Shown here piece after piece: positions 2,864-36,539 of a stretch of 59,501 nucleotides of DNA; position 1 is the first letter of the stretch, and every line of letters begins with the position of its first letter. This DNA comes from Candidatus Thorarchaeota archaeon. GTDB lineage: Archaea; Asgardarchaeota; Lokiarchaeia; Sigyniarchaeales; SOKP01. Position numbers and translations under genes: made by a program. Where the stretch lies: positions 1 through 59,501 of the forward strand of contig JBHLRA010000003.1 of the NCBI GenBank assembly GCA_048883045.1, given 5' to 3'. The notes beneath the pieces were generated by a model. That model was not told the DNA's origin, did no database searches, and saw only the letters and a program-made list of their open reading frames with translations.

Positions 2864-3076
2864 TTATAATCTCCGTAAAACCATATGAATCCATACTTTA
2901 AATTTAAGTTTAAGAGTAGCTACCTTCCAGGGTATACACATTGCATCCGTATGGTGGCCGCATTCCACAAAACACATTTTTGTTTGTGGATGAGGTTGTG
3001 AATGTCTACAATAAAATTTTGACTCACCACAATGACGGATTGAATAAGATTTGTTACAAATGAATTTATCAATCAT
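2864..3076 (-). CDS. Small Cys/His-rich protein (possible zinc-binding)
   Basis: 70-aa ORF with 7 Cys and many His. SD GGAGAG upstream. Confidence 0.45.
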   Translation of the reverse strand: MIDKFICNKSYSIRHCGESKFYCRHSQPHPQTKMCFVECGHHTDAMCIPWKVATLKLKFKVWIHMVLRRL

Positions 3077-3155
3077 AATTTATCTCTCCAAATTAATGAT
3101 ACTAAATAAATATATATACCGATTTCTAAACCGGTGATAATGATAATTGCACAAT

Positions 3156-12412: not shown

Positions 12413-13623
12413 TTATTTTCTCCCATTTTTTTTTCTTTTATTAATTCTTTGTATTTTTGGTATGCTTCACTTTTAGGTTGTGCTTGACCTAATCCCTTAC
12501 ACCAGTAATCATTACGTAATAATACCTTACATAATCTCCTCCAAGAAGGTGCCCAACATTTACTTTCCAATTCATAAGGAGCTTCATCTGGTATTTCTTT
12601 ATAACCTCTCTGATGCCATCCCCAAATAAATTTTTTAAATCTATTAATATAATGTTTTTTTGTTTTTTCTGGCATTGTTTGAAGTAATAAATTACAAAAA
12701 CTACGCCAAGTATGATTATTTGGTTTGGTTATTTTGTTATAACCAGTCATATTACCTTTCTCTTGTATATATAATGCACCAGAATTTGCACCGTTGACTC
12801 TAGCAATTAATTTAAACCAAGTATTTGGCTCTAAAATATGATATAACCATAATCCTTGACGTTGATCATCCCCATAAGGTTGGCAAAGTCTTTGTTGGCT
12901 TAATTTTACACCTGCCATATTCATTTTATCATAAATTTTATTATAAGGTTTGTCCTGATGTCTAGCATGATATACCCAAATATCTTCAGTTTTCCAATCA
13001 TAAATAGGATAAATATTGTATGTGTGTTTAGATGTTTTTGTTGTCCAACGGTGATTATTAAACATCAAATCTTTTTTTTCCCAAGTAGCTATTGCACAAT
13101 ATCTATGCAGACTTTCATCCGCTCGTATTCCAACAAAAATAGCTGTGTTTTTTCCTCCACTATACCAATTACCGAATAAAGGCACAAATTCTTCAAATTC
13201 CATAGGAGGGATATAAAAGGAATAGTCATTTTCTGTTTTTGCCCATACTGGTTTTTCTCGCACCCAAATATCTTTCTTGTTTTCTTCCCAACAAATCCAA
13301 CGTGGTTCAAAATTAGAAACTGCATTTCTTAATAACATAGGAACGCAAACCCAATGTGGATCAATATAATCAGAATAAATATTAAATATATTCTTTAAAT
13401 GTGTTATTGTGTCTGCATATTGTGCTTCCATATCAATAAATAATAATGCTACTTTTCTATTTCTTTTTATAGCCTCTTCAAGTACTAGATGTACCATAAC
13501 AGTACTATCCTTACCTCCAGAAAAAGAACATGAAATATGTTCAAAATTATCAAAAACAATACTAATGCGTTTTTTGGAGGCTGTCAAAACATCTGTATTA
13601 TTATACTTTTTTACTTTTAACAT
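12358..13623 (-). CDS. PAPS-reductase-family PP-loop protein (IbrA-like)
   Basis: 421 aa. PP-loop SFSGGKDSTVM near the N-terminus. Long Trp-rich C-terminal extension. Adjacent to a ParB-like gene. Confidence 0.75.
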   Translation of the reverse strand: MLKVKKYNNTDVLTASKKRISIVFDNFEHISCSFSGGKDSTVMVHLVLEEAIKRNRKVALLFIDMEAQYADTITHLKNIFNIYSDYIDPHWVCVPMLLRNAVSNFEPRWICWEENKKDIWVREKPVWAKTENDYSFYIPPMEFEEFVPLFGNWYSGGKNTAIFVGIRADESLHRYCAIATWEKKDLMFNNHRWTTKTSKHTYNIYPIYDWKTEDIWVYHARHQDKPYNKIYDKMNMAGVKLSQQRLCQPYGDDQRQGLWLYHILEPNTWFKLIARVNGANSGALYIQEKGNMTGYNKITKPNNHTWRSFCNLLLQTMPEKTKKHYINRFKKFIWGWHQRGYKEIPDEAPYELESKCWAPSWRRLCKVLLRNDYWCKGLGQAQPKSEAYQKYKELIKEKKMGENKCYKIEVLPKPQPTGNLI

Positions 13624-13624
13624 A

Positions 13625-14773
13625 TCAATACAAACTCATCTGATTAGTAGAAATAGCTTCTTCCATAGAAATTTCTTTTCTACCATTATTAACTAACCAT
13701 TTATTTAAATACTTTAATGCTATTTCATTTGCATGCATTTGCTCTTCCTGTGATAATAAATTAAATCCTCCTCGAAATGTAGCAGGTATACCCGTTGCAT
13801 AACACATTGCTGCTTGTCCCAACCATGCTATTCTATTTAGAGCTGAATTAGTTAAATAATGTTCACATGAATATTTCCATTCAGTTATTACACAGTTTAA
13901 TGTCTCACTAAATATTTCATGATTATTTAAGAAATCATGATAAGCTTGTTCACATTCTTCTTTTTTCATTCCTTCCATAGTTGTAGCATAAAACCCTGCT
14001 TTATAACATTCCCATTTACTATAATGGTGAAAGATTCTATTCTCATCATTTGTATTAATAGTTCTAAATTTTTCAGTTTCACTTTGATCATATGTTGTTA
14101 TATCATCTGATAATTCTTCTTTTTTATCATCAAATTCAGAATCGATAATATCCCATGATTTAGAAAATTCTTGATCTGTAAATAATTTTGCAAGTCCTGT
14201 TATTTGACATAATCTTAATATTTCATCTTCGTCCATTCCTAATTGTTTAGCTATTCTTTCATTAGTCCAATTTCTATTTTTTAATTCTAAAATAATATCT
14301 GACATACCTAAAACTGTATGTTTACCCCTTGCCCTATTATGTCTAATAGTAGAAGCTATTCTATCACCCTTTTCAGATCGTTCATCATTTATTACTGTTA
14401 CAGGTAGATAATCATGAATACGCTTTTTAATCTGTTTATATTCTTTTCCAACTCTATTTCTATGGAATCCATCTATTACTTCATAATGATCATCATTTTT
14501 CCATGCTACTATTGGTTGCGTATATCCATCATTTTCAATAGACACTTTTAATAATTCCATTTCAGGTGGAGCAACAATATTAGGATTATAATCATTTGCC
14601 TTAACTTTATTATTTTTTACCCAAATAACACAATCTACAGGTTCTTCTTTAAAAGGACTTATTTTGTGTAATTCTTTTTTTATTATATTAATATATTTTA
14701 TTTTATCATCTATTTCTAATTTACTTATATCATAAATTAAATCATTTATAGAATTTAAAATTTTATCAATCAT
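13625..14773 (-). CDS. ParB/Srx-fold N-terminal domain protein (IbrB-like) with extended C-terminal domain
   Basis: 382 aa. VIDGFHRNR matches the ParB-type DGxHR motif. HTH-like NERIAKQLGMDEDEILRL. About 170-aa Cys/Trp-containing C-terminal region. Confidence 0.7.
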   Translation of the reverse strand: MIDKILNSINDLIYDISKLEIDDKIKYINIIKKELHKISPFKEEPVDCVIWVKNNKVKANDYNPNIVAPPEMELLKVSIENDGYTQPIVAWKNDDHYEVIDGFHRNRVGKEYKQIKKRIHDYLPVTVINDERSEKGDRIASTIRHNRARGKHTVLGMSDIILELKNRNWTNERIAKQLGMDEDEILRLCQITGLAKLFTDQEFSKSWDIIDSEFDDKKEELSDDITTYDQSETEKFRTINTNDENRIFHHYSKWECYKAGFYATTMEGMKKEECEQAYHDFLNNHEIFSETLNCVITEWKYSCEHYLTNSALNRIAWLGQAAMCYATGIPATFRGGFNLLSQEEQMHANEIALKYLNKWLVNNGRKEISMEEAISTNQMSLY

Positions 14774-21186: not shown

Positions 21187-21339
21187 TTATCTGCCCTTCA
21201 AAACATTTTGTAGATAATTTAATTCTAATTTACTTAATTCTCTATGATAAGTCAGACAATACAAACAATCTTTGCAAAATAATAATCTAATATTTTCTAT
21301 AGTAACTTCTATACAATTAGTATGTCTACATTTATCCAT
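21187..21339 (-). CDS. Small Cys-rich protein (not in ORF track)
   Basis: 50-aa ORF MDKCRHTNCIEV...FCKDCLYCLTYH.... Its ATG overlaps the upstream stop as TAATG. Confidence 0.4.
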   Translation of the reverse strand: MDKCRHTNCIEVTIENIRLLFCKDCLYCLTYHRELSKLELNYLQNVLKGR

Positions 21340-22556
21340 TATATTAATCCCGGTAATATTTTGTCATACCAATCTTCTATTGACAGTTTTTGTTCAGCTA
21401 CTATTTTGAGTCTATGCGCTATACATTCTTTATTTGTTTTTATATCATCCAACATTCCTTTTAATACTTCCCATTTATCACCCACTTCTGCACGATATTT
21501 TATATATTTCTCTGCTATTTCTGGACCACCAAACATATAAGTAGCAAGTATTCTATTTCTTGCCATGTCGTCATAATACCAATTATAACCCCGGGAAATA
21601 TATTTATTGGCATAATGATAGCATGGTTCTCCAGGATAAATCCATTTATTTTTCCCAAGAATAGCTAAAGTAAAATTTATGAAATGCTCACCTCCACCAT
21701 AGACACCTAATTCTTTGGGCCAACCTCCCAATAAGTCGTACAATCCCCTCTCCATAAACATGAAGCAGGTTGACATGCATGGCACTTTATATGGTTGACT
21801 AAAGCTTTTTCTGTATTTTGTAAATGAGTAGTGATATTCTCCAGCATCTCTGGCGTTAATTTCATTCCAGGGAAGGACACAGTTTTTCCGTCGGTTGTAA
21901 TCTTGCACGTCTTTTTCATTCATGCCTCCTTTGAATTTATATATTAATTCCCCACCTTGCCGTTCGCACATATAAGCTATTGGGATATGTAAAGTGCCAT
22001 TGAGTCTTTTATAACTATCAGCGTAATAAAAGAAAGCTTTTCGGATACTACTTTGACTAGGGATTATATGTGCATCACAAAAGAAAAGAATATCACCTGT
22101 GGAAGCTGCAACACCTGCATTTTTGGCTTGCCAGTGAGAAAGTTTTTTATCATAAGTTATATATTTTAGCCATGGCCTACAACCCCCTGCAAGCTCTTTC
22201 ATGCGGGGTGTGCCTGGATCTTGTGTACGATGAATATCATAGCCTTTATCTAATAAATCTTTAATATTAACCAATGCCTCTTTATATGGAACCTGTAATT
22301 CAGGATATAGAGATAATGCATTTTGCACACGTTGTCCAAAATTATTGATAAAATCTTCAATTAGAATTGCATTCGGATATTTTTCCCCCCGTTTTACTGT
22401 TTGTTGTGCTGCTTCTTCACACCAGTTATCAATAAGTATAATTTCAAAATCATGCCCAACATGTACAACTGATCTAAGCTCATTCCACAAAGCTTGTACT
22501 GTGAATTCAATTTGAGGATATTCTATGCAATATGGGATTATGACAGAGAGTTTCAT
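21339..22556 (-). CDS. GT-A fold (family 2-like) glycosyltransferase with DxH motif
   Basis: 405 aa. N-terminal KLSVIIPYC...EIILIDNWC. LFFCDAH (DxH). Confidence 0.7.
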   Translation of the reverse strand: MKLSVIIPYCIEYPQIEFTVQALWNELRSVVHVGHDFEIILIDNWCEEAAQQTVKRGEKYPNAILIEDFINNFGQRVQNALSLYPELQVPYKEALVNIKDLLDKGYDIHRTQDPGTPRMKELAGGCRPWLKYITYDKKLSHWQAKNAGVAASTGDILFFCDAHIIPSQSSIRKAFFYYADSYKRLNGTLHIPIAYMCERQGGELIYKFKGGMNEKDVQDYNRRKNCVLPWNEINARDAGEYHYSFTKYRKSFSQPYKVPCMSTCFMFMERGLYDLLGGWPKELGVYGGGEHFINFTLAILGKNKWIYPGEPCYHYANKYISRGYNWYYDDMARNRILATYMFGGPEIAEKYIKYRAEVGDKWEVLKGMLDDIKTNKECIAHRLKIVAEQKLSIEDWYDKILPGLI

Positions 22557-22684
22557 AAAAGCTCCTTAATCTGGGCTATCTGCACCTCTAGGCTTACAAT
22601 CTTGTGTATACACACCCCAGCCACTACACACCCAAGAATTAACAGAAAATAGATAAACATATTTATCATAATAAGGATATTTCA

Positions 22685-23458
22685 TTATTTATTCCCTTTC
22701 ACTTTTATATATTCTGTAAACCAAGCCTTACTTCCCTTTTTCCTGTATCCGTTTTTAATCATCCATGGCCGGCCAATATCTCTCACTATAGGACCTTTAC
22801 CTCTCATACCCCATACACCATATCTATTAAGGTCTTGAAATAAATGTTTAAATTTTTGGTTTTTGCCTTTGATTTGTTTCTCTGGATTACGATTAGGATT
22901 AAGCTGGGGTGCAATTTCATTAATAAAAGATTGTCTAATAAGAGATGGATGGCCAGTAAAACCCAATAAGCCTCGTTCATTTGGTGGTATTTCATAAAAT
23001 ATACCATTCCAGGGTATATATTTATTCCAATTTTTTGTCCAATAAGTACCCCCCTTGAAAGCATTAAGGCGTAATATTTGCAAAGTTGGGAATTTTTGCA
23101 TAATTCTAATAAGATTGAGCAAATCTACAGATTGTAATAATTCCCAATCATCCTCAAGATGGAAAGTGAAATCAGCAGGAGTAGCATTACAACACCATGT
23201 ACGCCAAAAAGCTTTTCCAAAATGTGCTTTAATCGGTTCATGAATACCTATATCACTTTTTGGAAACATTTTTCTAAATATATATCTGGTTTCTTCTTTT
23301 GTGCCCTCTCCAATTGGATCTAAATTAATATATATACCAATTTTTAATCTTGGATCTTTTTCCATTGCTGGATAAAACATCTTCTCACAAAAGCTTTTTA
23401 ATACTCTTTCATGTAATTCTGGCCGTCGTATTGCTGTCATTGTTATATTAATGATCAT
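22685..23458 (-). CDS. Putative GT-A-like glycosyltransferase
   Basis: 257 aa. HLEDDWELL acidic motif. Located inside the glycosyltransferase cluster. The call is weak. Confidence 0.35.
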   Translation of the reverse strand: MIINITMTAIRRPELHERVLKSFCEKMFYPAMEKDPRLKIGIYINLDPIGEGTKEETRYIFRKMFPKSDIGIHEPIKAHFGKAFWRTWCCNATPADFTFHLEDDWELLQSVDLLNLIRIMQKFPTLQILRLNAFKGGTYWTKNWNKYIPWNGIFYEIPPNERGLLGFTGHPSLIRQSFINEIAPQLNPNRNPEKQIKGKNQKFKHLFQDLNRYGVWGMRGKGPIVRDIGRPWMIKNGYRKKGSKAWFTEYIKVKGNK

Positions 23459-23637
23459 AATATTTCCCTTAATTTTGATTCAGATGTTGTTAAAAATGAA
23501 TATAATAATTTATTTTCATGCCATAATTCTACTACCATATCAGATAATCTATTATCAATTATTCGTATATTAAATTCATTCTTTTTTAAGTTTATATTTT
23601 TTATATACGAGTTATGACATTTTAATTTTATTTCCAC
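23455..23637 (-). CDS. Hypothetical small protein (GTG start)
   Basis: 60-aa ORF. The start codon is GTG. Confidence 0.35.
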   Translation of the reverse strand: MEIKLKCHNSYIKNINLKKNEFNIRIIDNRLSDMVVELWHENKLLYSFLTTSESKLREIL

Positions 23638-24278
23638 TTTTCTAACCTTTCAAAATACATAAGATTTTGATAATATGCTTTGATGCCTTTTTTATTTCGC
23701 CATTTTTGCCATTTAAATTGTAATAAAGTTTCTACAGGTCTTATTTGTTGTAAAGTATTATCTACATATTCATCGATCAAAATGTCTGGTCTTATATAAT
23801 TTTTATCTTTAAATTTTTGTTCCCAATATTCTTTTGGTTGACAATTATGATGATGTATTCCACCTTGTCCCGGACCTGCTGCTGAAAATAAAATCCTATC
23901 TGATAATGAATATAAATTATCTAAGAAAATATTTGTGTATTCTGGCTCTATGTGTTCAGCAACTTCAAAGCAAATAGCAAGATCAAATTTTCTGAAAGTA
24001 AACGGATGTTCTATTTTATCTTTTCGTAAATCATATATCCAAATCCTATCAAAATTTTCTACATCAGATAATGCATTAACCGTGCCCTCAATACCAAATG
24101 TTTGTATATTTCTATTAATAAATCCTTTAACAAGATCCCCATTACCACAGCCTATATCAATTACACTTTTAGGTTTTAAAACATCAATTATAGCATCACA
24201 AACAATAGGTATCCGCCAAGCTAAAGATTTACGCCTAGTAAAGAATTTTTTTGAATAAGCTTTGTCTAGATTATACAT
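23628..24278 (-). CDS. Class I SAM-dependent methyltransferase
   Basis: VIDIGCGNGDL (motif I) and CFEVAEHIEP. The track start at 24296 is GTG. ATG 24278 overlaps the stop of micro-ORF 24278..24340 as TAATG. Confidence 0.7.
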   Translation of the reverse strand: MYNLDKAYSKKFFTRRKSLAWRIPIVCDAIIDVLKPKSVIDIGCGNGDLVKGFINRNIQTFGIEGTVNALSDVENFDRIWIYDLRKDKIEHPFTFRKFDLAICFEVAEHIEPEYTNIFLDNLYSLSDRILFSAAGPGQGGIHHHNCQPKEYWEQKFKDKNYIRPDILIDEYVDNTLQQIRPVETLLQFKWQKWRNKKGIKAYYQNLMYFERLEKWK

Positions 24279-24340
24279 TATGCTATTAAGCTCCACATAA
24301 ATAATATACCTAATATAAACCCAAATATAAAAAGCATCAT
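24278..24340 (-). CDS. Hydrophobic micro-ORF (20 aa)
   Basis: MMLFIFGFILGILFMWSLIA. ATGA overlap with the upstream GT stop and TAATG overlap with the downstream ATG. Confidence 0.3.
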   Translation of the reverse strand: MMLFIFGFILGILFMWSLIA

Positions 24341-25509
24341 TTTAATTTCCCCAAATTTTCCAATACTGTTTTAAAATCACCAGATTGAACATTCTTTATA
24401 GCATTAATCAAACTTGCCATTCTTGGCAATGCAACCTCCCACAAACCATTTACAGAATGATACCATTTGACTAATTCTGATCTATATATATTAAAAGACA
24501 TCCAATTTGTCGGTATCTTTGCCCAAGCCCTCTCAATTGCCTTTTCCCAATCCAGAATATAATGACTATTACATATAGTTACAAATTCATTTTCCTGCAT
24601 CCATGGACTATATCTTTTAGGATCTTTTATCATTATAGGAATACCACATGATAAAGCTTCTAATACACTTCGGTCATTTTGCCCCCCAGGGCCAGCATGA
24701 ATTAGAAGCTTGGAGTTGTTCATAAGTTTAGCAAGACAAGATCTTTTTTGCGCCCCAGGTTTATATAACCAGATCGGCCAGGATTTATTTATTAGATCAT
24801 TTGTTTTGGCCCGGATCATTCCTCCTGGCATTATGTAATGAAGATCTTTGAATTTTTTGTCTTTTGCGGCTAAGGCATTGCAAGCTTGAAGTGCCAAGAA
24901 TTGACCTTTTTTGGTATGAATGTGGGAGGCACCCAACATAATGTCATATTTGTGTTGCGCGGGTATTATTGGCTTGAAGATATATTCATTTACAGGTTTG
25001 CGATAAGGAAAAACTAATCTTTCTTTTTTATTTTTTATATTAAAATAAAAATCTGTCCAGGTATCTTTTTCTTCAGGAATTAAATCATTTAATATAATAT
25101 CCCAATATGGCCAATGACCATGATTTGTATTTGCACGGTAATATAACTTCCAATATTCCTTTTTATCTAATTTATTCAAAAATGGAAGCCATGATCTAAA
25201 TCCACCTCTAAAAAATAATACATCTCTTTTTGTGGCTACATTATTAAAGCATTCTATTGTTGGAACGCAATATATTGTACTCGTCGTCGTAGGCCTTAAA
25301 GTTCCATTTCCCCTTTTTGAATCTATAATATGATATACATGATCAACAGTACCAGTTACAGCTAATAAATCCAACAATGCAAATACACCATCGGATTGAA
25401 GATTAATAGCAAATTTATTGGTTGCAGGCTGTTCTAATTCAGATAAAGAAATAGAGCGGTTGCAGGGTTGATCACTCACATAGAAAAAGATTAGATTCAT
25501 TATATCCAT
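24337..25509 (-). CDS. GT-B fold glycosyltransferase-like protein
   Basis: 390 aa. C-terminal HAGPGGQNDRSVLEALSCGIPIM resembles the GT-B nucleotide-sugar-binding segment. An alternative in-frame ATG at 25500 overlaps the upstream stop. Confidence 0.5.
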   Translation of the reverse strand: MDIMNLIFFYVSDQPCNRSISLSELEQPATNKFAINLQSDGVFALLDLLAVTGTVDHVYHIIDSKRGNGTLRPTTTSTIYCVPTIECFNNVATKRDVLFFRGGFRSWLPFLNKLDKKEYWKLYYRANTNHGHWPYWDIILNDLIPEEKDTWTDFYFNIKNKKERLVFPYRKPVNEYIFKPIIPAQHKYDIMLGASHIHTKKGQFLALQACNALAAKDKKFKDLHYIMPGGMIRAKTNDLINKSWPIWLYKPGAQKRSCLAKLMNNSKLLIHAGPGGQNDRSVLEALSCGIPIMIKDPKRYSPWMQENEFVTICNSHYILDWEKAIERAWAKIPTNWMSFNIYRSELVKWYHSVNGLWEVALPRMASLINAIKNVQSGDFKTVLENLGKLK

Positions 25510-26876
25510 CCTCTACTCGCAGCCATTATTGGAGCATAGTAATACTTATACAATGCATCTAAATTATAACTTTTTATGAAGTGATTTTTTGATCTCAAAG
25601 CTTTGTTCAAATCAAATTCATGTAAAATAACCTTAGCTATTTCTTTCAAATAAGCTGGCAAATCAGGAGCATTAAAAGTCACTTCATGGCTTCCCATGGC
25701 AAAGAATAAAGCATTAAAATCTGTTATTTCTTTCATAACATCAAGAGATTTATTGAGGACCAATAAATTACCAAATAAAGCAGCTTCCGCAATTGCAAGC
25801 CCAAATGTCTCTTCTTTTGTGAGACTAATATAAATATTTGTATAGTGGAGCAGATCAAATATTAAATCATGACTTATTCCAACCTCACATTTACCTTTAT
25901 CAAAATCACTTGTAAAGAATAAATCTTTATTTGGTATAAGTCCCAGATCAATAGCTGCTTTTTTATAGCGGTCAACTTTATCACGATATTTATCAACATT
26001 ACACCATTGATTCGCAATTATCAAACAAACTTCCCGCCCTAAGCGTTTCATCTCTGCAAAGATATGGATATTTTCTAAAACTCTTTTGGACTCAAATCTA
26101 TCTACTGCAGCCATATATAATTGCTTGATATCTGCTGTCAATAGCCCTGGACACCAATCCAAAAACTTTAATGTTTGATCTGAATTTAACTGCCCAAATG
26201 TCCGGAAATCTTTAGGGTGGGGTATTACCAGTACATCTTTTTTCCATCCTTTGAATTGTTCCGCGCAACGTAAAGAATCCGACTCGTTCGGATATACAAG
26301 TTTATGCTGGCCCCCATATAAAGCAATATTCCAATAGTCGCGACCATTTGGGCCAACATTGGGAACACTATGAATCCAGTGCATAAAACGGGTATCAGGT
26401 AACTCTTTTGAAGCTTCAGCACAGGCTAGGCCGTATGGTAGATTCCAGCCCTGAAAAATCCAGTCATGAGTAAAAGCCAACTTGATCTCAAGTCGTCTAA
26501 ATTCTTTCCGAAGCATTTGGGCAGTATTATTTTTTAATAATAATAATTCTGGTATCTTTTTTGCTTCTGTGGGGTCTGCTGGGATAGTTACTGTTTGACC
26601 ATTGTTTGTTTTGAAACTAAAACCTTCTTTAAGTTTCCGGGCATAGTCTAAACTGAATTGCTGTAACGATTGAAAATCGAATAAATGCCCCTTGGGAACT
26701 TTCTTTTCAAGAATCACACCTTCAGGTAATGGTTCTGTATCTTCGTATGTTTCTAACACATATAGATGGACCTCATGCCCGTTTTTTATCAGCATTGTTG
26801 CTTGGTCTTTTGCAATACCTACCAGGGAATAACCGCGTCTAAAATCACCGAAGTTTGTTAAGATAGCGACTTTCAA
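25500..26876 (-). CDS. GT4-like (GT-B) glycosyltransferase
   Basis: 458 aa. N-terminal (TTG)KVAILTNFG...GHEVHLYV. EETFGLAIAEAALFG (E-x7-E motif). Confidence 0.75.
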   Translation of the reverse strand: MKVAILTNFGDFRRGYSLVGIAKDQATMLIKNGHEVHLYVLETYEDTEPLPEGVILEKKVPKGHLFDFQSLQQFSLDYARKLKEGFSFKTNNGQTVTIPADPTEAKKIPELLLLKNNTAQMLRKEFRRLEIKLAFTHDWIFQGWNLPYGLACAEASKELPDTRFMHWIHSVPNVGPNGRDYWNIALYGGQHKLVYPNESDSLRCAEQFKGWKKDVLVIPHPKDFRTFGQLNSDQTLKFLDWCPGLLTADIKQLYMAAVDRFESKRVLENIHIFAEMKRLGREVCLIIANQWCNVDKYRDKVDRYKKAAIDLGLIPNKDLFFTSDFDKGKCEVGISHDLIFDLLHYTNIYISLTKEETFGLAIAEAALFGNLLVLNKSLDVMKEITDFNALFFAMGSHEVTFNAPDLPAYLKEIAKVILHEFDLNKALRSKNHFIKSYNLDALYKYYYAPIMAASRGWI

Positions 26877-27172
26877 TTATTTTGCCTCCCATGACTGAAT
26901 TTGTTTCTTATCCTCTTTAACCATGATATTTTCTTTAAATACCTTGGATCAATGTTTTTTAAATCATCTTCTAATATTGTCAAATCATTACATATAAATT
27001 CGATCTGATAAACTCTTTGCTTCATATGCACAAACTGCGCCACATTAACCTTAATTCCTGGTTTATTTCGCCATTTAGTAAAAACCTGCCACACATCAGA
27101 AGGAATTATGTCATAACAAATCAAACTGATTGCATTGTTTTTTACAAGACGTTTATGCAATTTTTTATTCAT
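26873..27172 (-). CDS. Hypothetical protein (99 aa)
   Basis: The true start is taken as ATG 27172 (MNKKLHKRLV...). The upstream part of track ORF 26873..27370 is read-through of the stop-free repeat array. Confidence 0.55.
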   Translation of the reverse strand: MNKKLHKRLVKNNAISLICYDIIPSDVWQVFTKWRNKPGIKVNVAQFVHMKQRVYQIEFICNDLTILEDDLKNIDPRYLKKISWLKRIRNKFSHGRQNN

Positions 27173-27423
27173 GACCCTGACCATGCTCCTGATCCTGATC
27201 TTGCCCATGCTCCTGACCCTGACCTTGCCCATGACCATGCCCCTGACCCTGACCATGACCATGCTCCTGATCCTGACCCTGACCCTGACCATGACCTTGC
27301 TCCTGACCATGACCATGACCATGACCTTGACCTTGACCATGACCTTGCTCCTGACCATGACCATGACCATGATCTTGACCTTGACCTTGTTTTTTTGGAT
27401 AATTGTCTTTTACTGATAAACAT
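27169..27423 (-). CDS. Candidate Ser-X dipeptide-repeat peptide, copy 1 (84 aa); coding frame and strand uncertain
   Basis: Conserved ATG: MFISKRQLSKKTRSRSRSWSWSWSGARSW.... The TGA overlaps the ATG of 26873..27172 (ATGA). Confidence 0.35.
   Translation of the reverse strand: MFISKRQLSKKTRSRSRSWSWSWSGARSWSRSRSWSWSWSGARSWSGSGSGSGAWSWSGSGAWSWARSGSGAWARSGSGAWSGS
27173..27389. repeat. Imperfect hexanucleotide array 1 (minus-strand unit G[G/A][T/G]CA[T/A/G])
   Basis: About 36 units punctuated by CAGGAGCA. Open in 5 of 6 frames. Confidence 0.9.
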
Positions 27424-27425
27424 AC

Positions 27426-27644
27426 TCATGACCCTGACCATGACCTTGCTCCTGACCCTGACCATGACCTTGCTCCTGACCATGACCATGACCTTGCTCC
27501 TGACCATGACCATGACCATGATCTTGACCTTGCTCCTGACCATGACCATGACCATGACCTTGACCTTGACCATGACCTTGCTCCTGACCATGACCATGAC
27601 CATGACCTTATTCTTTTGGATAATTGTCTTTTATTAATAAACAT
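27426..27644 (-). CDS. Candidate Ser-X dipeptide-repeat peptide, copy 2 (72 aa); coding frame and strand uncertain
   Basis: Track ORF MFINKRQLSKRIRSWSWSWSGARSW.... Its stop is 2 nt before the copy 1 ATG. Confidence 0.35.
   Translation of the reverse strand: MFINKRQLSKRIRSWSWSWSGARSWSRSRSWSWSWSGARSRSWSWSWSGARSWSWSGARSWSGSGARSWSGS
27429..27608. repeat. Imperfect hexanucleotide array 2
   Basis: Same unit as array 1, about 30 units. Confidence 0.9.
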
Positions 27645-27663
27645 AATATATAATCCTATAATA

Positions 27664-27933
27664 TTATGGTATTACTTTAGTTATAAAATATGATTCTATT
27701 GAATTAAGTCTGATACATAATTCATTAGTAGGTAATTTTTGACAATCATTCCATGATTTGTTTTGCCATGCGCCGGTTTCATAGACAATGTAGGGATTTT
27801 TTAAGATCAAAAAATTATCATTTATAGCAATCAATGTACCTGTGTAATGATAAATTCCGCAAAAAATGAACAGTTGTTGATCCAGATATACTTCTAATTC
27901 TTGTTTAGTTTCAGTTTCAATTATTCTTTTCAT
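27664..27933 (-). CDS. Hypothetical protein
   Basis: 89-aa ORF with a strong SD AAAGGGAGG. Lies between arrays 3 and 2. Confidence 0.55.
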   Translation of the reverse strand: MKRIIETETKQELEVYLDQQLFIFCGIYHYTGTLIAINDNFLILKNPYIVYETGAWQNKSWNDCQKLPTNELCIRLNSIESYFITKVIP

Positions 27934-27960
27934 AAATGCCTCCCTTTTTGGTGTTAAATA

Positions 27961-28128
27961 TTATCCTGATCTTGACCATGACCTTGACCTTGACCCTGAC
28001 CATGACCATGCTCCTGATCCTGACCCTGACCCTGACCATGATCTTGACCTTGACCATGCTCCTGACCTTGACCTTGACCCTGATCTTGACCCTGCTCTTC
28101 TATATAATTTCCTTCTATTGATAAACAT
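27961..28128 (-). CDS. Candidate Ser-X dipeptide-repeat peptide, copy 3 (55 aa); coding frame and strand uncertain
   Basis: ATG 9 nt after the stop of 28138..28980: MFINRRKLYRRAGSRSGSRSRSGAWSRSRSW...; TAA stop. Confidence 0.3.
   Translation of the reverse strand: MFINRRKLYRRAGSRSGSRSRSGAWSRSRSWSGSGSGSGAWSWSGSRSRSWSRSG
27964..28096. repeat. Imperfect hexanucleotide array 3
   Basis: Same unit, about 22 units. Confidence 0.9.
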
Positions 28129-28137
28129 AGTATTATA

Positions 28138-28980
28138 TTACCAATCGTATGTCAAAGTTGCATATACTGTCTCATCATTTGTAACCCTGTTGATCCTATA
28201 TCCAACAAATCCAGCCCATCCCCAGGAGCCTCTTGATTGTTTGACACCATGTCCAATTGATGTATATGTATTATCTATTGTCATTCTGGAGATATGGTCT
28301 ATTCCGTAAGCGTTATCAAAATTAACTTTAACCCGGCCCAATTCCAGCCCATTGACAGATTTGAATATGATATTACCAAATGCCCAATATGTACCTTTTG
28401 GGAAAGTGACAATAACTTCTGTGGATGCAGTCCCATTATCATGATCAATTGTTATTTCAGGAGATAATATTTTTATATTTGGCTGATCACCAGCTATTTT
28501 TAACGTTATAGGCGAGTCAGAAGTAACAGTGATGTGAAACTGTGCAAAGCCGTCTGGTTTTACCTTTGCTATTACCTGCGCAGGATTAAAATAAAGTTTT
28601 GTATAATTAACAAATAGTCCAGATCCAGGGGATGCAATTGGTGCACCATAATATTTTGCATTTGTGATTTGATTATAATTTAAGGAATCGGCTTCGGAAT
28701 TTATATCATTATGAAGCTGTATAGCTTGATTTTCAATGACACCAGAATTGTCAATATTAATATAATTATTCGTAGTAGAATTTATACTATGATCATAATT
28801 ATATGTTTGATCCACATCATAATGATAATCCGTATCATTATAATTATTGTACGTGTTTTCGGTAGTGTTATAAGTGCCATAATCATAATAATTATCATTA
28901 TGGTGTGTTGCTCCATCTGCAAAACAATTTACTGCAAAACAAAGCAGAATACAAAGAATAAGTATGATTGATCTTTTCAT
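28138..28980 (-). CDS. Secreted protein with N/Y/D/T low-complexity region and beta-rich C-terminal domain
   Basis: Start moved to ATG 28980 (MKRSIILILCILLCFAVNCFA, signal peptide), preceded by AAAGGGAGG. 280 aa. Confidence 0.65.
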   Translation of the reverse strand: MKRSIILILCILLCFAVNCFADGATHHNDNYYDYGTYNTTENTYNNYNDTDYHYDVDQTYNYDHSINSTTNNYINIDNSGVIENQAIQLHNDINSEADSLNYNQITNAKYYGAPIASPGSGLFVNYTKLYFNPAQVIAKVKPDGFAQFHITVTSDSPITLKIAGDQPNIKILSPEITIDHDNGTASTEVIVTFPKGTYWAFGNIIFKSVNGLELGRVKVNFDNAYGIDHISRMTIDNTYTSIGHGVKQSRGSWGWAGFVGYRINRVTNDETVYATLTYDW

Positions 28981-28997
28981 GTTGCCTCCCTTTAAAT

Positions 28998-29051
28998 AAA
29001 AAAAAATATATCTGGAGTTGATAATATCTACTAATATCAACTCCAGATATA
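28998..29051 (-). terminator. Rho-independent terminator immediately upstream of gene 28138..28980
   Basis: Perfect 17-bp inverted repeat TATATCTGGAGTTGATA / TATCAACTCCAGATATA (29007..29023, 29035..29051). Followed on the minus strand by 9 T. Confidence 0.6.
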
Positions 29052-29515: not shown

Positions 29516-30376
29516 CTATGGTCCAGGTGGGGGAGGGGTTGTACTAGTTGTGGTATTAGATGTGGTGCTAGTACAAGTGCTGGAAAGTGTTGATGTTGTT
29601 GAAGTTTCCGTGCTTGTCGTGGTAGATTCCGACGAAATTGTCGAGGTCGAGGATTCTGTTGAAGAACAGGAACTTGTACTTGATTCGGTTGACTGGGAAC
29701 TTGTCGACGAAATTGTCGAAGAACAGGAACTTGTACTGGAAATCGTTGAAATCGTTGAACTACAGGAACTTGTAGAACTCTGAGTGGAAAGTGTAGATGT
29801 TGAGGATTCAGTAGAACTACAACTTGATGTCGACGAAATTGTCGAAGTTGATGATTCAGTACTTGAACAACTCGAAGTTGTTGAAATTGTTGAACTACAA
29901 GAACTTGTAGTTGATTCTGTACTCGCTGTGGAACAAGAACTTGAACAAGAACTTGAACATGTTGATGTACAAGTACTTGAGCTTGTAGTACTTAGTGTAC
30001 TCGCTGTACTTAGTGTACTTATTGTAGAACAAGAACTTGAACAACTTGAGCTACAAGAACTTGTACAAGATGAGGTAGAGCATGTTGAGGTACAACTTGA
30101 GGTACAACTTGTGGTGCAAGTCGTTGAACATGTTGTAGTACAAGTACTTGTACAAGAACTTGTGCAGCTTGAAGTCGAACAGGTGCTTGTCGTTGTGCTG
30201 GTACATGTACTGGTCGATGTAGTCGTCGTCGTAGTAGAAAACCCAAATAATTCATATACTTGCTCTAATGTAGCTTGCTTTGTAGTTCCTGTATGATTTT
30301 GGTGAACTATTATTCTATCTTGCCAACGCGCTTTATCAACAATTGGATATGCGTTAAAATCACTCATTTTGGGCAT
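29516..30376 (-). CDS. Ser/Thr/Cys-tract protein (45-aa N-terminal domain plus 240-aa low-complexity tract ending PPPPGP); candidate fibre
   Basis: 286-aa ORF. AGGGAGG SD. The tract is almost entirely S, T and C. Confidence 0.7.
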   Translation of the reverse strand: MPKMSDFNAYPIVDKARWQDRIIVHQNHTGTTKQATLEQVYELFGFSTTTTTTSTSTCTSTTTSTCSTSSCTSSCTSTCTTTCSTTCTTSCTSSCTSTCSTSSCTSSCSSSCSSSCSTISTLSTASTLSTTSSSTCTSTCSSSCSSSCSTASTESTTSSCSSTISTTSSCSSTESSTSTISSTSSCSSTESSTSTLSTQSSTSSCSSTISTISSTSSCSSTISSTSSQSTESSTSSCSSTESSTSTISSESTTTSTETSTTSTLSSTCTSTTSNTTTSTTPPPPGP

Positions 30377-32529: not shown

Positions 32530-34026
32530 TTATGACCAATCAATATATAAAGCTGCTTTGTAACTTGCTCCCCGATCTATATTAGAGAAACTTCTAAATG
32601 CCCCTGTTGATGATCCATTTTCCATGACTAATATTTGAATATCATTTCCAGATGCCCAACCCCCACGATTAACAATTTCCTGTATAATAGTTTTAATATC
32701 CGGAGAATCATATGCAGTATCTAAAGTCCAGGCCCCCTCATTATTCCAATTAACACTTGCTGTTGTTAAATTCATTGCCACAACATCTGCACAACTTGTT
32801 GGTGTTGTAGCTGTGTCTTCGTCTTCACCTTTCATTAACCATGCAATGCTGGTTCCTGAATCTGAATCTCCGGCTGTTATTGTTATTTTAGCTGAATCAA
32901 TCGTGGCAGAATTGGGAATATTTATATTTTCAAATTTACATCCCCACGACCAAATCCAATCTCCTGCACCATCACGTCCTATATCATCAATAGAATCTGT
33001 ATTATTAAATGTAACTTCAGTAGAATTAAATACCCAATCATCATTACTGGAATCTGGGTAAAATGTACCTTCTGTTGGTGGGGGAGGTGTACTGGAAGTT
33101 GTTGAATTTGTTGATAAAGTGCTGGCTGAAGATGCCGTGGAACTCTGGGTTGATGTCGACGATTCTGTCGAAATTGTGCTGGAGCAAGTGGAAGTTTGAG
33201 TCGTGGAAGACTGGCTGGAAACCGTTGATTCCGTGGAGGTACAAGAACTAGTGCTGGTACAAGTGCTTGAATTTGTTGATTGTGTACTGATTGTAGATTC
33301 CGATGATTTTGTCGAGGACTGGCTGGAGGTCGACGAAATTGTCGAACAACTAGAACTACAACTGGAAGTAATTCGGGTGGTGCTGGTGCTTGTAGATGAC
33401 TGGCTGGAAATAGTTGATGCTGTAGTGGTTTCAGTGGTACTACTCGTAGATGTACAACTGGTGCTGGATTCCGATGACTGGCTGGAACCTGTTGATATTG
33501 TTGAGCTACAGGTTGACGTACAAGATGTAGTATGTGTTGTGGTGCAGGTACTAGATATAGTGGTGTGACTGGAAGTGCTTGTGCAGCTTGAGGTTAGTGT
33601 TGTCGAGCAAGAACTTGAACAGGAACTTGTACAAGTGCTAGTCGTAGTGGTTGTTGTAGTTGTGGGTACAACCCAATCTGACAGAGAAGATTCAACCATA
33701 AAAGTAATCGTAACTAAACCATGTTCGTTTCTTAACTGACTTAAATTTCCTTGATATGCACCATCCGGGGTCGTAAGCGTCAATACATAATAATTTTTAT
33801 GTAGAGTATAAAGAGTATTATATTGTTCTTGTGTCACATTAGCCTGGAACGTAAATGTACGATCTCCATGTGACCATCCATTGTCCCGGATGTTTATACC
33901 TGTATCAAGTGTTGCCGTTTTGTTGACTCGTCTTGATAAGTCTTGATAGTTGGAACCTGACTCCAACACATCTAAGTTTATATAATCATCCAGGGAAAAA
34001 GTTTGCGCTGATATTGATATTTTCAT
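32530..34026 (-). CDS. Distal-tail-position protein with internal 197-aa Ser/Thr/Cys tract and C-terminal beta-sandwich-like domain
   Basis: 498 aa. Its start overlaps the tape-measure stop. The tract is aa 121..317 (33076..33666) and ends TPPPP. Confidence 0.65.
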   Translation of the reverse strand: MKISISAQTFSLDDYINLDVLESGSNYQDLSRRVNKTATLDTGINIRDNGWSHGDRTFTFQANVTQEQYNTLYTLHKNYYVLTLTTPDGAYQGNLSQLRNEHGLVTITFMVESSLSDWVVPTTTTTTTTSTCTSSCSSSCSTTLTSSCTSTSSHTTISSTCTTTHTTSCTSTCSSTISTGSSQSSESSTSCTSTSSTTETTTASTISSQSSTSTSTTRITSSCSSSCSTISSTSSQSSTKSSESTISTQSTNSSTCTSTSSCTSTESTVSSQSSTTQTSTCSSTISTESSTSTQSSTASSASTLSTNSTTSSTPPPPTEGTFYPDSSNDDWVFNSTEVTFNNTDSIDDIGRDGAGDWIWSWGCKFENINIPNSATIDSAKITITAGDSDSGTSIAWLMKGEDEDTATTPTSCADVVAMNLTTASVNWNNEGAWTLDTAYDSPDIKTIIQEIVNRGGWASGNDIQILVMENGSSTGAFRSFSNIDRGASYKAALYIDWS

Positions 34027-36539
34027 TATGGATTTATCCCCAACAAGAAGTCTTGTTGTTCTTCATTAACTCTTATTTGTATTTGTTCTAATATATAAAA
34101 GAATATTGCTTCAAGATGGGGTTCAAGGCCTTCAGCATTTATTGTGATTAGAGGGTCACCGCGGTTAAATGCTGTAATACGGGCTTGTAATGCTGCAATC
34201 TGGGCTTCTGTTAATTCTTTTTGGAGTTTAAGTGATTCTTCACGTCGTTCATTTTCTTGCCGAATTTGTTCTTCTATATTCCATCTAGTTATAAAGTCCA
34301 TATCTCCTTCAGCAAGTAATCCGAATAATTCTGATAAAACATCGCCAGTGGATTCTATAGCTACATTCACTGATTCAAAAGCAGCTTCAATGCGTTTTGT
34401 ATCTGCTTCTATTTGAGCAATGTCTATTTCAGCTCTGAGTTCTAAGGATTTCTCAAGAATCTTTGCTTCAGTTTCAAGTCGTTCTTTTATACGTGCTAAT
34501 TCATCTGGAGCAGTTACAGGTTTTACTTTTACTTCACGGGTTTTTGGTATAGTTGCATCCATTTGTTCTTGTACTATTCCAGCTTGTAATGTATCCCAAG
34601 CAGCACCAGTTTGTATTATTTTAGAATCAGGAATTGATTCATCAATTTGAGTTCCTACTTTTTTGACTTCGTCAGTCATTTCTTTTGCTGCAGATCCTAC
34701 GGCAAAAGTAGTTTCATTCCAGGCATCTGATATCACACCTGCGCGTTCTTTTATATCTTCCCATCCACCTTTTACAAATTCATCTGTAGCTTCTTTGGCA
34801 TTTTTTATTGTATCAACCATACCAAAAGTTGCAGTATTAGCAAATGATAATAATGTATCAACAAATAATGCCCAGGATAAAATCCATGTATCCATGATAA
34901 TTTGAGCACCTTGATATAATGTTATTAAACTATCATGGATTACTTCAAAAGAATCAGATAATTTAAAACTTGAATCTTTCATAGATAATAAAGCTGTGCC
35001 AAGATATAAACCTGCTTCTTGTAATATCACAGCTCCAGCTAATAACTTACCTATTGTACTTGAACTTTTGTCATCTAAAGCCGTAAATGATTCCACACTT
35101 TCATATATTTTAGTAAACAAGCTACCAAAAACAGGAATCATTCCGTTTGTAACATCAATCAATGTTGCTATTATATTAACTATGCCTTGTAATATTTCAT
35201 ATAGACCTTCAGGTGTTGTAAGATCTAAATCAAATAAATCTTGTATAGATTTTGATGTTCCACTTAATGCTTCAGTAATAACACTAAAATCCATACGAGA
35301 TAAAGTTTCTGGGATTACATCTGCCACACCTTTTAAGAATTCTGTAAGTTTGGCAATAAAATCATCATAAGCATTAAATAAAACATCAAAAGAACCCTCA
35401 TTAATTCCTTTTGTTAATACTTGGAATATTTGAGAAATAATATTTACAGCCTTACCATAACCCTCTTCTAAAGATGTACCAATAGTGACTAAAAGAATAT
35501 CTAGATTATTAAGAAATCTTTGATTAACTAATTCAAAATTATTCTGCATTTTTTCAAACGCAACGCCTACAACTCCAGCACGGTTTGACATTCCTTCAAG
35601 AGCCGTTGCCATATATCCAGCATTATCTCCACCTATGACAAGGGCAGACCCTAAACCTCTGACATTACCAAATAATTCTGCAACCGCTCCAGCATTTCCT
35701 TGTACTTTATTGAATACATCTTGCATAATAGCTACAAAACCATCAGATCTTAATCTAGCTGCATCAAATTGTATTCCAAGTGTTTTTGCTGCTTCTGCTG
35801 CTTCTCCTGAAGGTTTAAGAATATTACTTATAGCTGTTCTAATAGAAGTCATTGCTTTCGATGTTGGCAAACCTGCTGCTGTCAATGTTGCTACCGCCGC
35901 CGCTACTTCATCAAAAGATATACCCGCTGGAGCTGCTACCGCTGTTACCATAGCAAAAGAATCTGCCAACTCCGGTAATGTCGTCAAACCATATTTAACA
36001 GTTTGAAAAAATACATCAGAATAATCACCAGCCTCGGATGCAGCCGCACCGTAAGCATTCATTGTTGATACAAGAGCTTTAGTGGTACTCTCTAAATCTC
36101 CCCTACCTGCAATAGCTAATTTTTCAGCTTCTCGGACAAAATCAATAGAATCTTTATAATCAATTTGGCCAGATACAGCCATGTACAAAGCGCCGGTTAT
36201 GTCTTCTAAACTCTTAGAAGAATCAGCACCATAAGCTAAAATCTGAGTTCTATATTGTTCCAGATCTGCCGTACTGGCATCAATTAAAGTTGATATTTCT
36301 GCAAATGCATCATTAAACTCACCAGACTTTTTTATAGATAAAGCCATGCCGCCAACCGCCAAAGCTGTCAAAGCTGCATCCGCCGCAATAATACCCTTTC
36401 CAATTTGCGCGAACGGATCAACAATTTTCATTGCCATTCGGTCAAGCTGGTCTAATGATGCCGTAATATTCTTAACCGCAGTTGTGACTTTATCATCTGC
36501 ATTAAATATTATATCAACTGTTCTACTTACATTTGCCAT
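34026..36539 (-). CDS. Tail tape measure protein
   Basis: 837 aa. Ala/Gly-rich helical N-half and coiled-coil C-half. Immediately downstream of the frameshifted chaperone gene. Confidence 0.85.
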   Translation of the reverse strand: MANVSRTVDIIFNADDKVTTAVKNITASLDQLDRMAMKIVDPFAQIGKGIIAADAALTALAVGGMALSIKKSGEFNDAFAEISTLIDASTADLEQYRTQILAYGADSSKSLEDITGALYMAVSGQIDYKDSIDFVREAEKLAIAGRGDLESTTKALVSTMNAYGAAASEAGDYSDVFFQTVKYGLTTLPELADSFAMVTAVAAPAGISFDEVAAAVATLTAAGLPTSKAMTSIRTAISNILKPSGEAAEAAKTLGIQFDAARLRSDGFVAIMQDVFNKVQGNAGAVAELFGNVRGLGSALVIGGDNAGYMATALEGMSNRAGVVGVAFEKMQNNFELVNQRFLNNLDILLVTIGTSLEEGYGKAVNIISQIFQVLTKGINEGSFDVLFNAYDDFIAKLTEFLKGVADVIPETLSRMDFSVITEALSGTSKSIQDLFDLDLTTPEGLYEILQGIVNIIATLIDVTNGMIPVFGSLFTKIYESVESFTALDDKSSSTIGKLLAGAVILQEAGLYLGTALLSMKDSSFKLSDSFEVIHDSLITLYQGAQIIMDTWILSWALFVDTLLSFANTATFGMVDTIKNAKEATDEFVKGGWEDIKERAGVISDAWNETTFAVGSAAKEMTDEVKKVGTQIDESIPDSKIIQTGAAWDTLQAGIVQEQMDATIPKTREVKVKPVTAPDELARIKERLETEAKILEKSLELRAEIDIAQIEADTKRIEAAFESVNVAIESTGDVLSELFGLLAEGDMDFITRWNIEEQIRQENERREESLKLQKELTEAQIAALQARITAFNRGDPLITINAEGLEPHLEAIFFYILEQIQIRVNEEQQDFLLGINP

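Follow-up and report, generated by a model that had tools for sequence, protein, structure and literature searches.

The eukaryotic proteins SmD1, SmD3, SmB and LSm4 are Sm/LSm proteins with C-terminal RG/RGG dipeptide-repeat tails, and both LSm proteins and RG/RGG tails promote the assembly of ribonucleoproteins (RNPs). Low-complexity sequence also makes up the RS domains of SR proteins and the [G/S]Y[G/S]/RGG 'sticker-spacer' domains of FUS-type RNA-binding proteins, and the serine-rich-repeat glycoproteins of Gram-positive bacteria (GspB and Fap1, with GtfA/GtfB) contain long Ser-X repeats in which X is Ala, Val, Thr or Glu. In bacteriophage T4, GoF, along with Frd.2 and MotB.1, is assigned to a Tevenvirinae family of small proteins with a predicted LSm-like fold, and GoF(D25Y) is described as stabilising an mRNA (PMC12152347). 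Borg proteins contain fast-evolving, in-frame tandem nucleotide repeats that create disordered regions (PMC9879509). Here we describe a locus in contig JBHLRA010000003.1 (positions 1 to 59,501, the whole stretch analysed and hereafter the window), a 59.5-kb, 32% GC tailed-phage genome in which three cassettes of hexanucleotide repeats (c1, c2 and c3) very probably encode Ser-X microproteins belonging to a large phage family.

The decisive evidence on the reading frame of these cassettes came from other phages, because homologues of the 89-amino acid (aa) open reading frame (ORF) between c3 and c2 led to Ser-X ORFs elsewhere. An alignment-based scan found 62 loci encoding this ~85-aa Sm-like protein (8 from JGI, 53 from IMG/VR and 1 from GTDB), all in environmental phages of 32-64% GC, and a Ser-X ORF lies directly after the Sm-like gene in ~51 of the 59 loci with enough downstream sequence. 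The family ORF is 42-91 aa long and consists of a short basic leader (median 12 aa, net charge +4; for example MTINTIHSRYRR, MIKKSIYKRN, MISLRSIKQN and MKQLKRTRF) followed by (Ser-X)n. Of 33 cases measured, its start overlaps the stop of the Sm-like gene in 17 (in 13 through a 4-nt ATGA) and falls within 20 nt in 11 more. Gly (37%), Trp (26%) and Arg (26%) together fill 89% of the X positions, and the peptides as a whole are 40% Ser, 16% Gly, 14% Arg and 11% Trp, with a net charge of +2 to +19 and no hydrophobic segment or signal peptide in any member. The window peptides share each of these traits, namely a basic leader, (Ser-X)n, a length of 42-91 aa and adjacency to the ~85-aa Sm-like gene, and their leaders, MFI[NS][KR]R[QK]L[SY][KR][KR], match the family pattern M-x-[IL]-N-..-[RK]-x-Y-[RK]-[RK].

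Each array essentially uses a single Ser codon, and that codon differs between lineages (relatives are given here by L numbers). It is TCA in the window, L037, L054, L074 and L094; TCT in L046, L050, L052, L056, L062 and L069; TCG in L053, L055, L060, L082 and L085; and AGC in L038, L048, L049, L084, L086 and L098. Across the family the other five frames read GQ/GH, LG, RG, GA/EA, VM, VV/VG or ER/EL, many of them with stops, and Ser-X is the one reading that these comparisons show to be conserved across lineages. Since only the Ser-X reading survives the switching of Ser codons, the cassettes are very probably minus-strand protein-coding genes of a large phage family coupled to the gene for the ~85-aa Sm-like protein. 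The comparison all but rules out the plus-strand Thr-[Met/Leu] reading, as well as a non-coding satellite or a contingency locus. On the same comparisons, the ORF between c3 and c2 is a conserved partner gene and the window locus is one instance of a large family, two points missed by the earlier note described below. The features of the locus are as follows.

27961..28128, minus strand: c3 gene, upstream of the Sm-like gene and ending in TAA; encodes a Ser-X microprotein of 55 aa, MFINRRKLYRRAG(S-X)n.
27964..28096, minus strand: array 3, a (TCA-NGG)-type hexanucleotide repeat of ~21 units.
27664..27933, minus strand: Sm-like partner gene between c3 and c2, an 89-aa protein of predicted Sm/LSm fold with a GGGAGG Shine-Dalgarno (SD) sequence in front.
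27426..27644, minus strand: c2 gene, ending in TGA; encodes a Ser-X microprotein of 72 aa, MFINKRQLSKRIR(S-X)n.
27429..27608, minus strand: array 2, ~30 hexamer units with GGAGCA punctuation.
27169..27423, minus strand: c1 gene, ending in TGA; encodes a Ser-X microprotein of 84 aa, MFISKRQLSKKTR(S-X)n.
27173..27389, minus strand: array 1, ~36 hexamer units.
26873..27172, minus strand: 99-aa gene downstream of c1, a context gene outside the Ser-X family module.
27167..28137, no strand assigned: lineage-specific insert (c3, Sm-like gene, c2 and c1), from blastn synteny with relatives.

The minus strand carries every substantial ORF of this genome, which includes phage genes for a terminase, portal, protease, major head protein, tape measure (34026-36539), DNA polymerase and sigma factor. 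The genes of the locus are tightly packed: c3 ends 27 nt ahead of the start of the Sm-like gene, c2 starts 19 nt past its stop on the same strand, 2 nt separate the c2 TGA from the c1 ATG, and the c1 TGA overlaps the start of the 99-aa gene as ATGA. An earlier note, made from the letters of the window alone, had described three imperfect hexanucleotide arrays with conserved heads (the third diverged) and five open frames, and had proposed minus-strand Ser-X peptides of 84, 72 and 55 aa that were cationic, Trp/Arg-rich and coupled to their neighbours. Repeat finding and six-frame translation agreed with the first description, and the ORFs, together with those of other phages, with the second. 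Tandem Repeats Finder returned two period-6 arrays, one of 72 copies (72% matches) at 27172-27607 and one of 21 copies at 27967-28091, which a period-6 scan divided into 27170-27397, 27416-27612 and 27952-28091. The 27-nt head ATGTTTATYARTAAAAGACAATTATCC occurs as exact copies at 27397-27423(-) and 27618-27644(-), with 0 expected from shuffles; the third head, at 28102-28128, is diverged (MFINRRKLYRR vs MFINKRQLSKR). Five of the six frames are open, the plus TGA frame being the only closed one. Read from the conserved ATG, the minus-strand peptides begin MFI[SN][KR]R.. and continue as Ser-X (X = W, R, G) with Ser-Gly-Ala punctuation; each of the three is 35-36% Ser and has a net charge of +13. 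These array lengths rest on one assembly: a second, independent assembly of this phage, from Logan, is interrupted within array 1, and its last 89 nt are identical.

Within the window, stop codons and codon usage both bear on the reading frame. For the unit G[G/A][T/G]CA[T/A/G], four frames are never stop-capable, one always has stops, and the Ser-X frame alone can gain them (CAT+GA). The avoidance of internal TGA that the note had claimed for this frame held up when counted: none of the 33 T-first X codons is TGA, against 22 xGA codons among 55 that are A/G-first (Fisher P = 5.5e-6), and without the repeated GGAGCA block the figures are 0/33 and 10/43 (P = 0.004). Restriction-site avoidance was rejected as the cause because TCATGA is not avoided genome-wide (28 observed vs 31 expected). 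The ATG is in phase with the Ser-X frame in all three cassettes, and the codon-usage score of this frame is near neutral (-0.01 to -0.10), compared with log-odds per codon of -0.8 to -1.06 for the plus Thr-Leu frame and -1.2 to -1.4 for the minus Val-Met frame; the best codon usage belongs to the minus Gly-His/Gln frame. As the note had also stated, and correctly, the four differences between the c1 and c2 flanks are all silent in the plus Thr-Leu frame; in the minus frame they fall at codon positions 3, 2, 2 and 2 and give S/N, K/R and T/I changes. With the best codon usage in one competing frame and silent flank differences in another, the frame could not be decided from the window alone.

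Two other minus-strand frames were tried and rejected. The Gly-His/Gly-Gln frame has no start codon in any cassette and, in c2, a TAA between leader and array; it is further ruled out by two TAA stops in L037. The Val-Met frame shares its phase with the 99-aa gene; it was rejected because its codon usage is the worst and because the 99-aa protein begins M-N-K-K-L-H in relatives without arrays. The sequence AGGAGCA[A/T]GGTCATG occurs eight times, at 27254-27585 and 28001-28015 (-), and sets an SD-like AGGAG 7 nt before an ATG of the Val-Met frame. Such sites could give spurious internal initiation, and they account for gene-caller choices such as a 103-aa call on L009. Antisense to the cassettes, sigma-70-like TTGACC/ATGACC-N17-GATAAT sites formed by the last array unit and the flank lie at 27375-27403 and 27596-27624 (+); promoter-like matches of this kind are not above shuffles (34 vs 34.2 expected).

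Close relatives of the window show how the cassettes are placed. The flanks of 27167-28137 align at 67-80% identity to L010, L020, L022, L027 and L033, from which the segment itself is absent, and this blastn synteny marks the segment as an insert specific to the lineage. It occupies a slot of variable content, a hot spot, that lies between the gene for a 300-aa secreted protein and the 99-aa gene. The latter has relatives of 69-80% identity in Logan/ENA assemblies, with or without cassettes. The slot is empty in L020 and L022; it holds a 28-38-aa membrane peptide with a single transmembrane (TM) segment and a basic tail (for example MTGKIIAIILSILSICMSSYAIIIIYKTNKIYKKLRKR) in L010, L023 and L027-L032, and an unrelated 113-aa ORF in L033 and L034. 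Its coordinates are 9900-10001 in L010, 1-112 in L023, 3884-4000 in L027 and 3667-4008 in L033; each occupant is tightly coupled to the 99-aa gene, and the basic tail of the TM peptides, NK..YKK, is similar to the cassette leader. In L021 the cassette is a mini-cassette, MGNYYFLNTLNNIILYIMVINKRRLYKKSSRSWAGSGSWS, with 6 units in the Ser-X frame and a perfect SD, identical in 3 samples; its TGA overlaps the ATG of the 99-aa homologue as ATGA. L037 has a Sm-like gene 76% identical to that of the window, followed by one 61-aa cassette, MILNRKRLYIKSGSRSWVWSRSWSRSSRLRSW...VWA, with the leader MILNRKRLYIK(S-X)n. This cassette is the positional orthologue of c2 and ends in an ATGA junction with the 99-aa homologue. 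On L038, a much GC-richer contig, a 46% identical Sm-like homologue is followed, through an ATGA overlap, by MTINTIHSRYRRGSGSWSGSWSRSGSGS...YWEEL, whose Ser codons are AGC/AGT, not TCA. Downstream of this Ser-X gene (797-1938) lie a 73-aa protein with two TM segments, its ATG overlapping the Ser-X stop, and then TM ORFs of 43, 66 and 46 aa.

Nucleotide and peptide searches found no close relatives of the Ser-X peptide, the flank DNA or the neighbouring genes in IMG/VR, JGI metagenomes or GTDB genomes; the exact and degenerate leader DNA patterns were absent from IMG/VR and gave, in GTDB genomes, one chance match in an ABC-transporter gene. The sole blastn match of the locus among GenBank phages was the uncultured 462-kb jumbo phage LR756500.1 (L001). 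It was rejected as a chance DNA match, because positions 2997-3120 encode a (Gly-Gln)n linker within a larger protein through GGTCAA/GGACAG repeats.

The arrays and cassettes turn over rapidly among relatives. L062 and L063 are identical across 800 nt upstream and their arrays differ by exactly one 6-nt unit, and the arrays of L072 and L073 differ in length by 12 nt; such differences between near-identical phages mean that the arrays slip in frame. Multiple cassettes, from two to five copies, occur in 16 loci, and in L052 and L092 a cassette copy lies upstream of the Sm-like gene, just as c3 precedes the partner, c2 and c1 in the window. In L072/L073 (128-3678) and L075-L077 (3406-4067), three to five Ser-X genes lie within 6 kb, both in tandem and dispersed, and the paralogues of multi-copy phages differ mainly by repeat number. 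Together, these results show that the arrays are the DNA footprint of one Ser codon and NGG codons used over and over, shaped by in-frame 6-nt slippage and whole-cassette duplication.

The partner protein was characterised through its predicted structure. The AF2 model of the 89-aa protein (predicted local distance difference test score, pLDDT, 78.4) has a helix and beta-strands, the Sm fold being defined by an N-terminal helix and then a strongly bent beta-sheet of five strands, and its top 50 Foldseek matches in the PDB are all Sm, LSm or SmAP proteins (among them SmG, Lsm3 and archaeal SmAPs) at probability 1.0, the best being SmG (9dtr_g, E 3e-4, template modelling score 0.66/0.82). Its matches in BFVD are small phage barrels that are uncharacterised, plus one protein that carries the name 'RNA binding protein'. 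In alignment A4 of the Sm-like homologues, C25, Y28, Y30, G32, E52-T53-G54 and E80 are invariant. The best weak Pfam matches of the members, DUF6897 and DUF5846, are both below cut-off; a PDB profile search returned only KIN17 at E 0.78, and five homologues run against PHROGs v4 gave only E >= 0.02. As sequence models barely detect the protein, we file it as Sm-like by fold only, on the strength of the model.

What the two components might do together can be proposed with caution. The Ser-X peptides would be intrinsically disordered polycations in which Trp and Arg act as 'stickers', binding nucleic acid and each other, with the intervening Ser and Gly serving as 'spacers'. Their synthesis would keep pace with that of the Sm-like protein, and the two would act together on nucleic acid, RNA being the likeliest target. 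The peptides could supply in trans what RG/RGG tails provide in eukaryotic Sm/LSm proteins, and might drive RNP clustering; repeat number and cassette copy number would set valency. We regard it as possible, though tentative, that the peptides are disordered sticker-spacer partners of the Sm-like protein in nucleic-acid binding. Somewhat more doubtful is the fuller proposal of a two-component RNP-organising module in which, during infection, RNA (or DNA) would be condensed or protected by a Sm-like ring and one or more sticker-spacer microproteins. If such a module is real, its valency may be tuned by hexanucleotide slippage and cassette duplication. A strict dipeptide repeat of ~70 aa with a small fixed partner would in any case offer a simple natural system for studying how repeat number and the Arg, aromatic, Ser and Gly composition control nucleic-acid binding or condensation in bacterial cells.

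Several observations weigh against the coding assignment or against this functional proposal. No good SD precedes the three window ATGs, while 36 of the 58 genes of this genome have one, so translation would depend on coupling. The coupling itself has exceptions, as L021 has a cassette without the Sm-like gene and five loci have the Sm-like gene without a cassette, and no fusion of a Ser-X tail to the Sm-like protein was seen among 38 homologues. Clustering of 523 ORFs from 55 loci found no conserved neighbour apart from the Sm-like gene that would point to a pathway; inspection of the neighbours shows mostly small genes of early type or for recombination or replication. On the partner's side, Pfam LSM reaches only E 0.042 in 1 of 26 members, Sm1/Sm2 motifs were not found, and the classical Sm RNA-binding residues are not evident. 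The codons of the X positions are a further difficulty: NGG (GGG, TGG, AGG, CGG) makes up 83% of 1,053 X codons family-wide. The preference extends to this AT-rich genome, in which GGG and AGG are seldom used, and it holds whatever the genome GC: 89% of the Gly codons at X are GGG and 93% of the Arg codons are AGG or CGG. G, W and R together are just what the NGG box encodes. Mutation, concerted evolution or a nucleic-acid constraint could thus account for part of the X pattern in place of selection on the peptide. L081 is an exception, with NGC/TAC codons and no GG, in which S-[R/G/Y] is kept with Tyr in place of Trp. The bias may represent the mutational neighbourhood of TGG under concerted evolution, or a second constraint at the nucleotide level. 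The 'dual constraint' suggested in the earlier note finds a partial echo in this unexplained NGG preference; its plus-strand protein reading was refuted by the homologues.

Of the explanations that compete with a nucleic-acid-binding module, the one that survives best, although we consider it improbable, is that the peptides act on their own as membrane-active cationic Trp/Arg peptides, of the antimicrobial-peptide or phage 'disruptin' type, in lysis or exclusion. Trp/Arg antimicrobial peptides have a similar Trp/Arg-rich, strongly cationic composition, close relatives hold membrane peptides with basic tails in the same slot, and the L038 cassette stop overlaps the start of a two-TM protein with more small TM proteins after it. 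This explanation has to contend with the tight and widespread coupling to a cytoplasmic-type Sm-fold protein, with the lack of a signal peptide or hydrophobic segment in every member, and with neighbourhoods that by inspection are mostly of early or recombination type and have no conserved lysis gene. Moreover, a Ser plus Gly content of ~56% is unlike that of known amphipathic lytic peptides.

It is less probable again that the cassettes are translated but functionless, either as a slippage-prone leader ORF serving as a translational-coupling spacer or as a selfish expanding repeat. ATGA or near-adjacent junctions flank the cassettes on both sides, the window ATGs lack an SD, cassette length and copy number turn over rapidly, and the NGG codons fit a mutational neighbourhood, all as such an element would have it. 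A spacer would not, however, hold Ser at every second position through four codon types, nor a G/R/aromatic set at X in genomes of 32-64% GC, nor a conserved basic leader. The downstream genes vary by locus, whereas the upstream Sm-like gene is constant.

The earlier note had also suggested that the Ser-X repeats are O-glycosylated by adjacent GT4/GT-B enzymes, in the manner of the serine-rich-repeat glycoproteins with GtfA/GtfB, which we now consider very improbable. Two weak glycosyltransferase (GT)-like ORFs do lie directly downstream (Glyco_transf_4 E 0.0067, Glycos_transf_1 E 0.0047, PHROG glycosyltransferase E 0.0012), and Ser/Thr-rich repeat genes occur just upstream of GT homologues in L006-L008. 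None of these GT matches reaches the curated cut-off, and the PDB holds no matching sequence. Both GT homologues are present in L010 and L027, which have no cassette, L002-L008 likewise have GT homologues without cassettes, and elsewhere the Ser-X family has no conserved GT neighbour. In this phage group, a 286-aa Ser/Thr/Cys-rich protein (29516-30376) is a likelier substrate.

A non-coding origin, in which the arrays are a hexanucleotide satellite, a contingency locus or a DNA/RNA structural element (G-quadruplex-type or SD-like) and the open frames a by-product, is slightly less probable still. The repeat unit alone keeps five frames open, and the NGG share of the X codons, the eight AGGAG-N7-ATG sites in the window arrays and the polymorphism in array length would all suit such an element. 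Between the NGG triplets, though, there is always Ser, drawn from two unconnected codon families (TCN and AGY) in genomes of 32-64% GC, which a nucleic-acid motif would not require. In addition, the leader found at the stop of the partner gene is conserved and includes a start codon, S-[R/G/Y] is maintained in L081 by NGC/TAC codons that lack GG, and an Rfam search gave only a chance miRNA match (E 0.77). As for the contingency locus raised in the earlier note, a 6-nt unit never toggles a frame, and the differences observed are of 6 and 12 nt. The weakest alternative, that of plus-strand genes for very hydrophobic (Thr-[Met/Leu])n peptides ending in LFFWIIVFY and antisense to other genes, has next to no probability left, for although this frame is open in the three window cassettes, L021 and L037, with silent flank differences and promoter-like sites (at shuffle level) to its credit, the antisense frames of TCT-, TCG- and AGC-type cassettes read RP, DP, PA, SS and other unrelated, often stop-containing sequence (one frame of the TCT type has many stops), the Thr-Met/Leu peptide is not conserved beyond TCA-type arrays, its codons are rare (relative synonymous codon usage 0.54 for ACC and 0.14 for CTG), no cassette offers it an SD, its stop position is not kept in L037, and the remaining substantial ORFs of the genome are all on the minus strand.

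The genes around the Ser-X genes and their Sm-like partner in the window add several observations of their own. Upstream of the insert, the 300-aa protein at 28138-29040 (-) starts with what looks like a signal peptide, contains a region rich in Asn, Tyr and Asp, and ends in ...TLTYDW, which resembles an outer-membrane beta-barrel signal; relatives keep it at 274-296 aa, and neither Pfam nor PHROGs gave a match. Neither it nor the 99-aa protein has relatives in IMG/VR or JGI metagenomes, and the AF2 model of the 99-aa protein (pLDDT 72.6) gave no significant PDB fold match. The 286-aa repeat protein (minus strand) has a conserved N-terminal domain and a PPPPGP end and is kept in L010 and L021. 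On related Logan contigs, its open antisense frame has been taken for a gene (of 207 and 142 aa). Downstream of the cassettes, 24337-26876 (-) and 21339-24296 (-) form a cluster of weak GT-like (below Pfam cut-offs) and methyltransferase-like ORFs, kept in relatives with and without cassettes. The Ser/Thr-rich repeats directly upstream of a homologue of the 458-aa GT-like protein lie at 7387-7465 in L006, 7446-7729 in L007 and 7901-7961 in L008. Further away, at 12358-14773 (-), a PAPS-reductase-like protein (phrog_2302, E 7e-90) adjoins a ParB-like nuclease-domain protein (phrog_2159, E 2e-69), and these neighbours may be a DNA-modification pair.

The Ser-X genes have largely escaped annotation. 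Five Ser-X peptides had no match in PHROGs v4 at E <= 1, where the composition filters of HMMER may hide repeats, and the c2 peptide found nothing in HMMER searches of 5.8 billion proteins or 1.84 billion representatives, to which composition filters probably contribute. Literature searches with Ser-X repeat motifs as strings returned nothing relevant (IUPAC barcodes only), those on phage hexanucleotide repeats and small ORFs only unrelated phage papers, and those on dipeptide repeats in phage genomes nothing. The peptides are thus essentially unannotated as judged from PHROGs, the two HMMER searches and the literature strings (Pfam was not scanned with them), and the description 'novel repeat peptides' in the earlier note was borne out. 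The NCBI record of the window annotates none of the three cassette genes, and gene callers on related contigs took wrong frames or fused the array to the next gene. Among 50,697 GenBank phage records, a collection that does not include the window's record, tblastn with a Sm-like member found no cultured phage and one metagenomic record, MW202825, whose annotation skips the Sm-like gene and the first cassette and labels the second 'hypothetical'. A widespread phage family of at least 60 loci, 32-64% GC and often multi-copy, has in this way largely been missed by standard annotation. It shows that phages can carry low-complexity microproteins as conserved genes under selection, and it provides an example of how a locus with every frame open can be resolved through codon-family switching between relatives.

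By membership tests, the locus falls outside each of the nearest described systems. Ribosomally synthesised and post-translationally modified peptide (RiPP) precursors are set apart by the lack of a conserved modification-enzyme neighbour among the clustered ORFs. With the serine-rich-repeat glycoproteins the family shares Ser-X dipeptide repeats and, in the window, GT-B-type-like genes nearby; it differs in having Gly, Arg or Trp at X, no signal peptide, cell-wall anchor or accessory Sec genes, and a GT association that is not conserved. Like Borg repeats, the arrays are fast-evolving in-frame DNA repeats in a mobile genome that encode low-complexity peptide (PMC9879509), whereas even very distant phages share the Ser-X composition and leader, almost the entire protein is repeat, and the partner gene is fixed. 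As in RS and FUS-type domains, Arg-Ser dipeptides occur and aromatic and Arg residues are spaced by Ser and Gly in predicted disordered polycations; in contrast, the phage peptides have Trp for Tyr (except in L081) and a strict period of 2, and they are free-standing, 42-91 aa long and without an RNA recognition motif. The T4 GoF family resembles the partner in being small phage proteins with a predicted LSm-like fold, a likeness drawn by description only, and the part of the report cited mentions no repeat-peptide partner for it (PMC12152347). There is also a parallel with the RG-tailed Sm/LSm proteins, in which a Sm-fold protein is likewise combined with a cationic, Gly/Arg-rich low-complexity dipeptide repeat. 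In the phages the repeat is a separate, coupled polypeptide of Ser-X type with abundant Trp, the partner is without recognisable Sm1/Sm2 motifs, and the setting is a bacteriophage. If the proposed function is true, this module would be a minimal trans-encoded counterpart of RG-tailed Sm/LSm proteins and of eukaryotic low-complexity condensate scaffolds.

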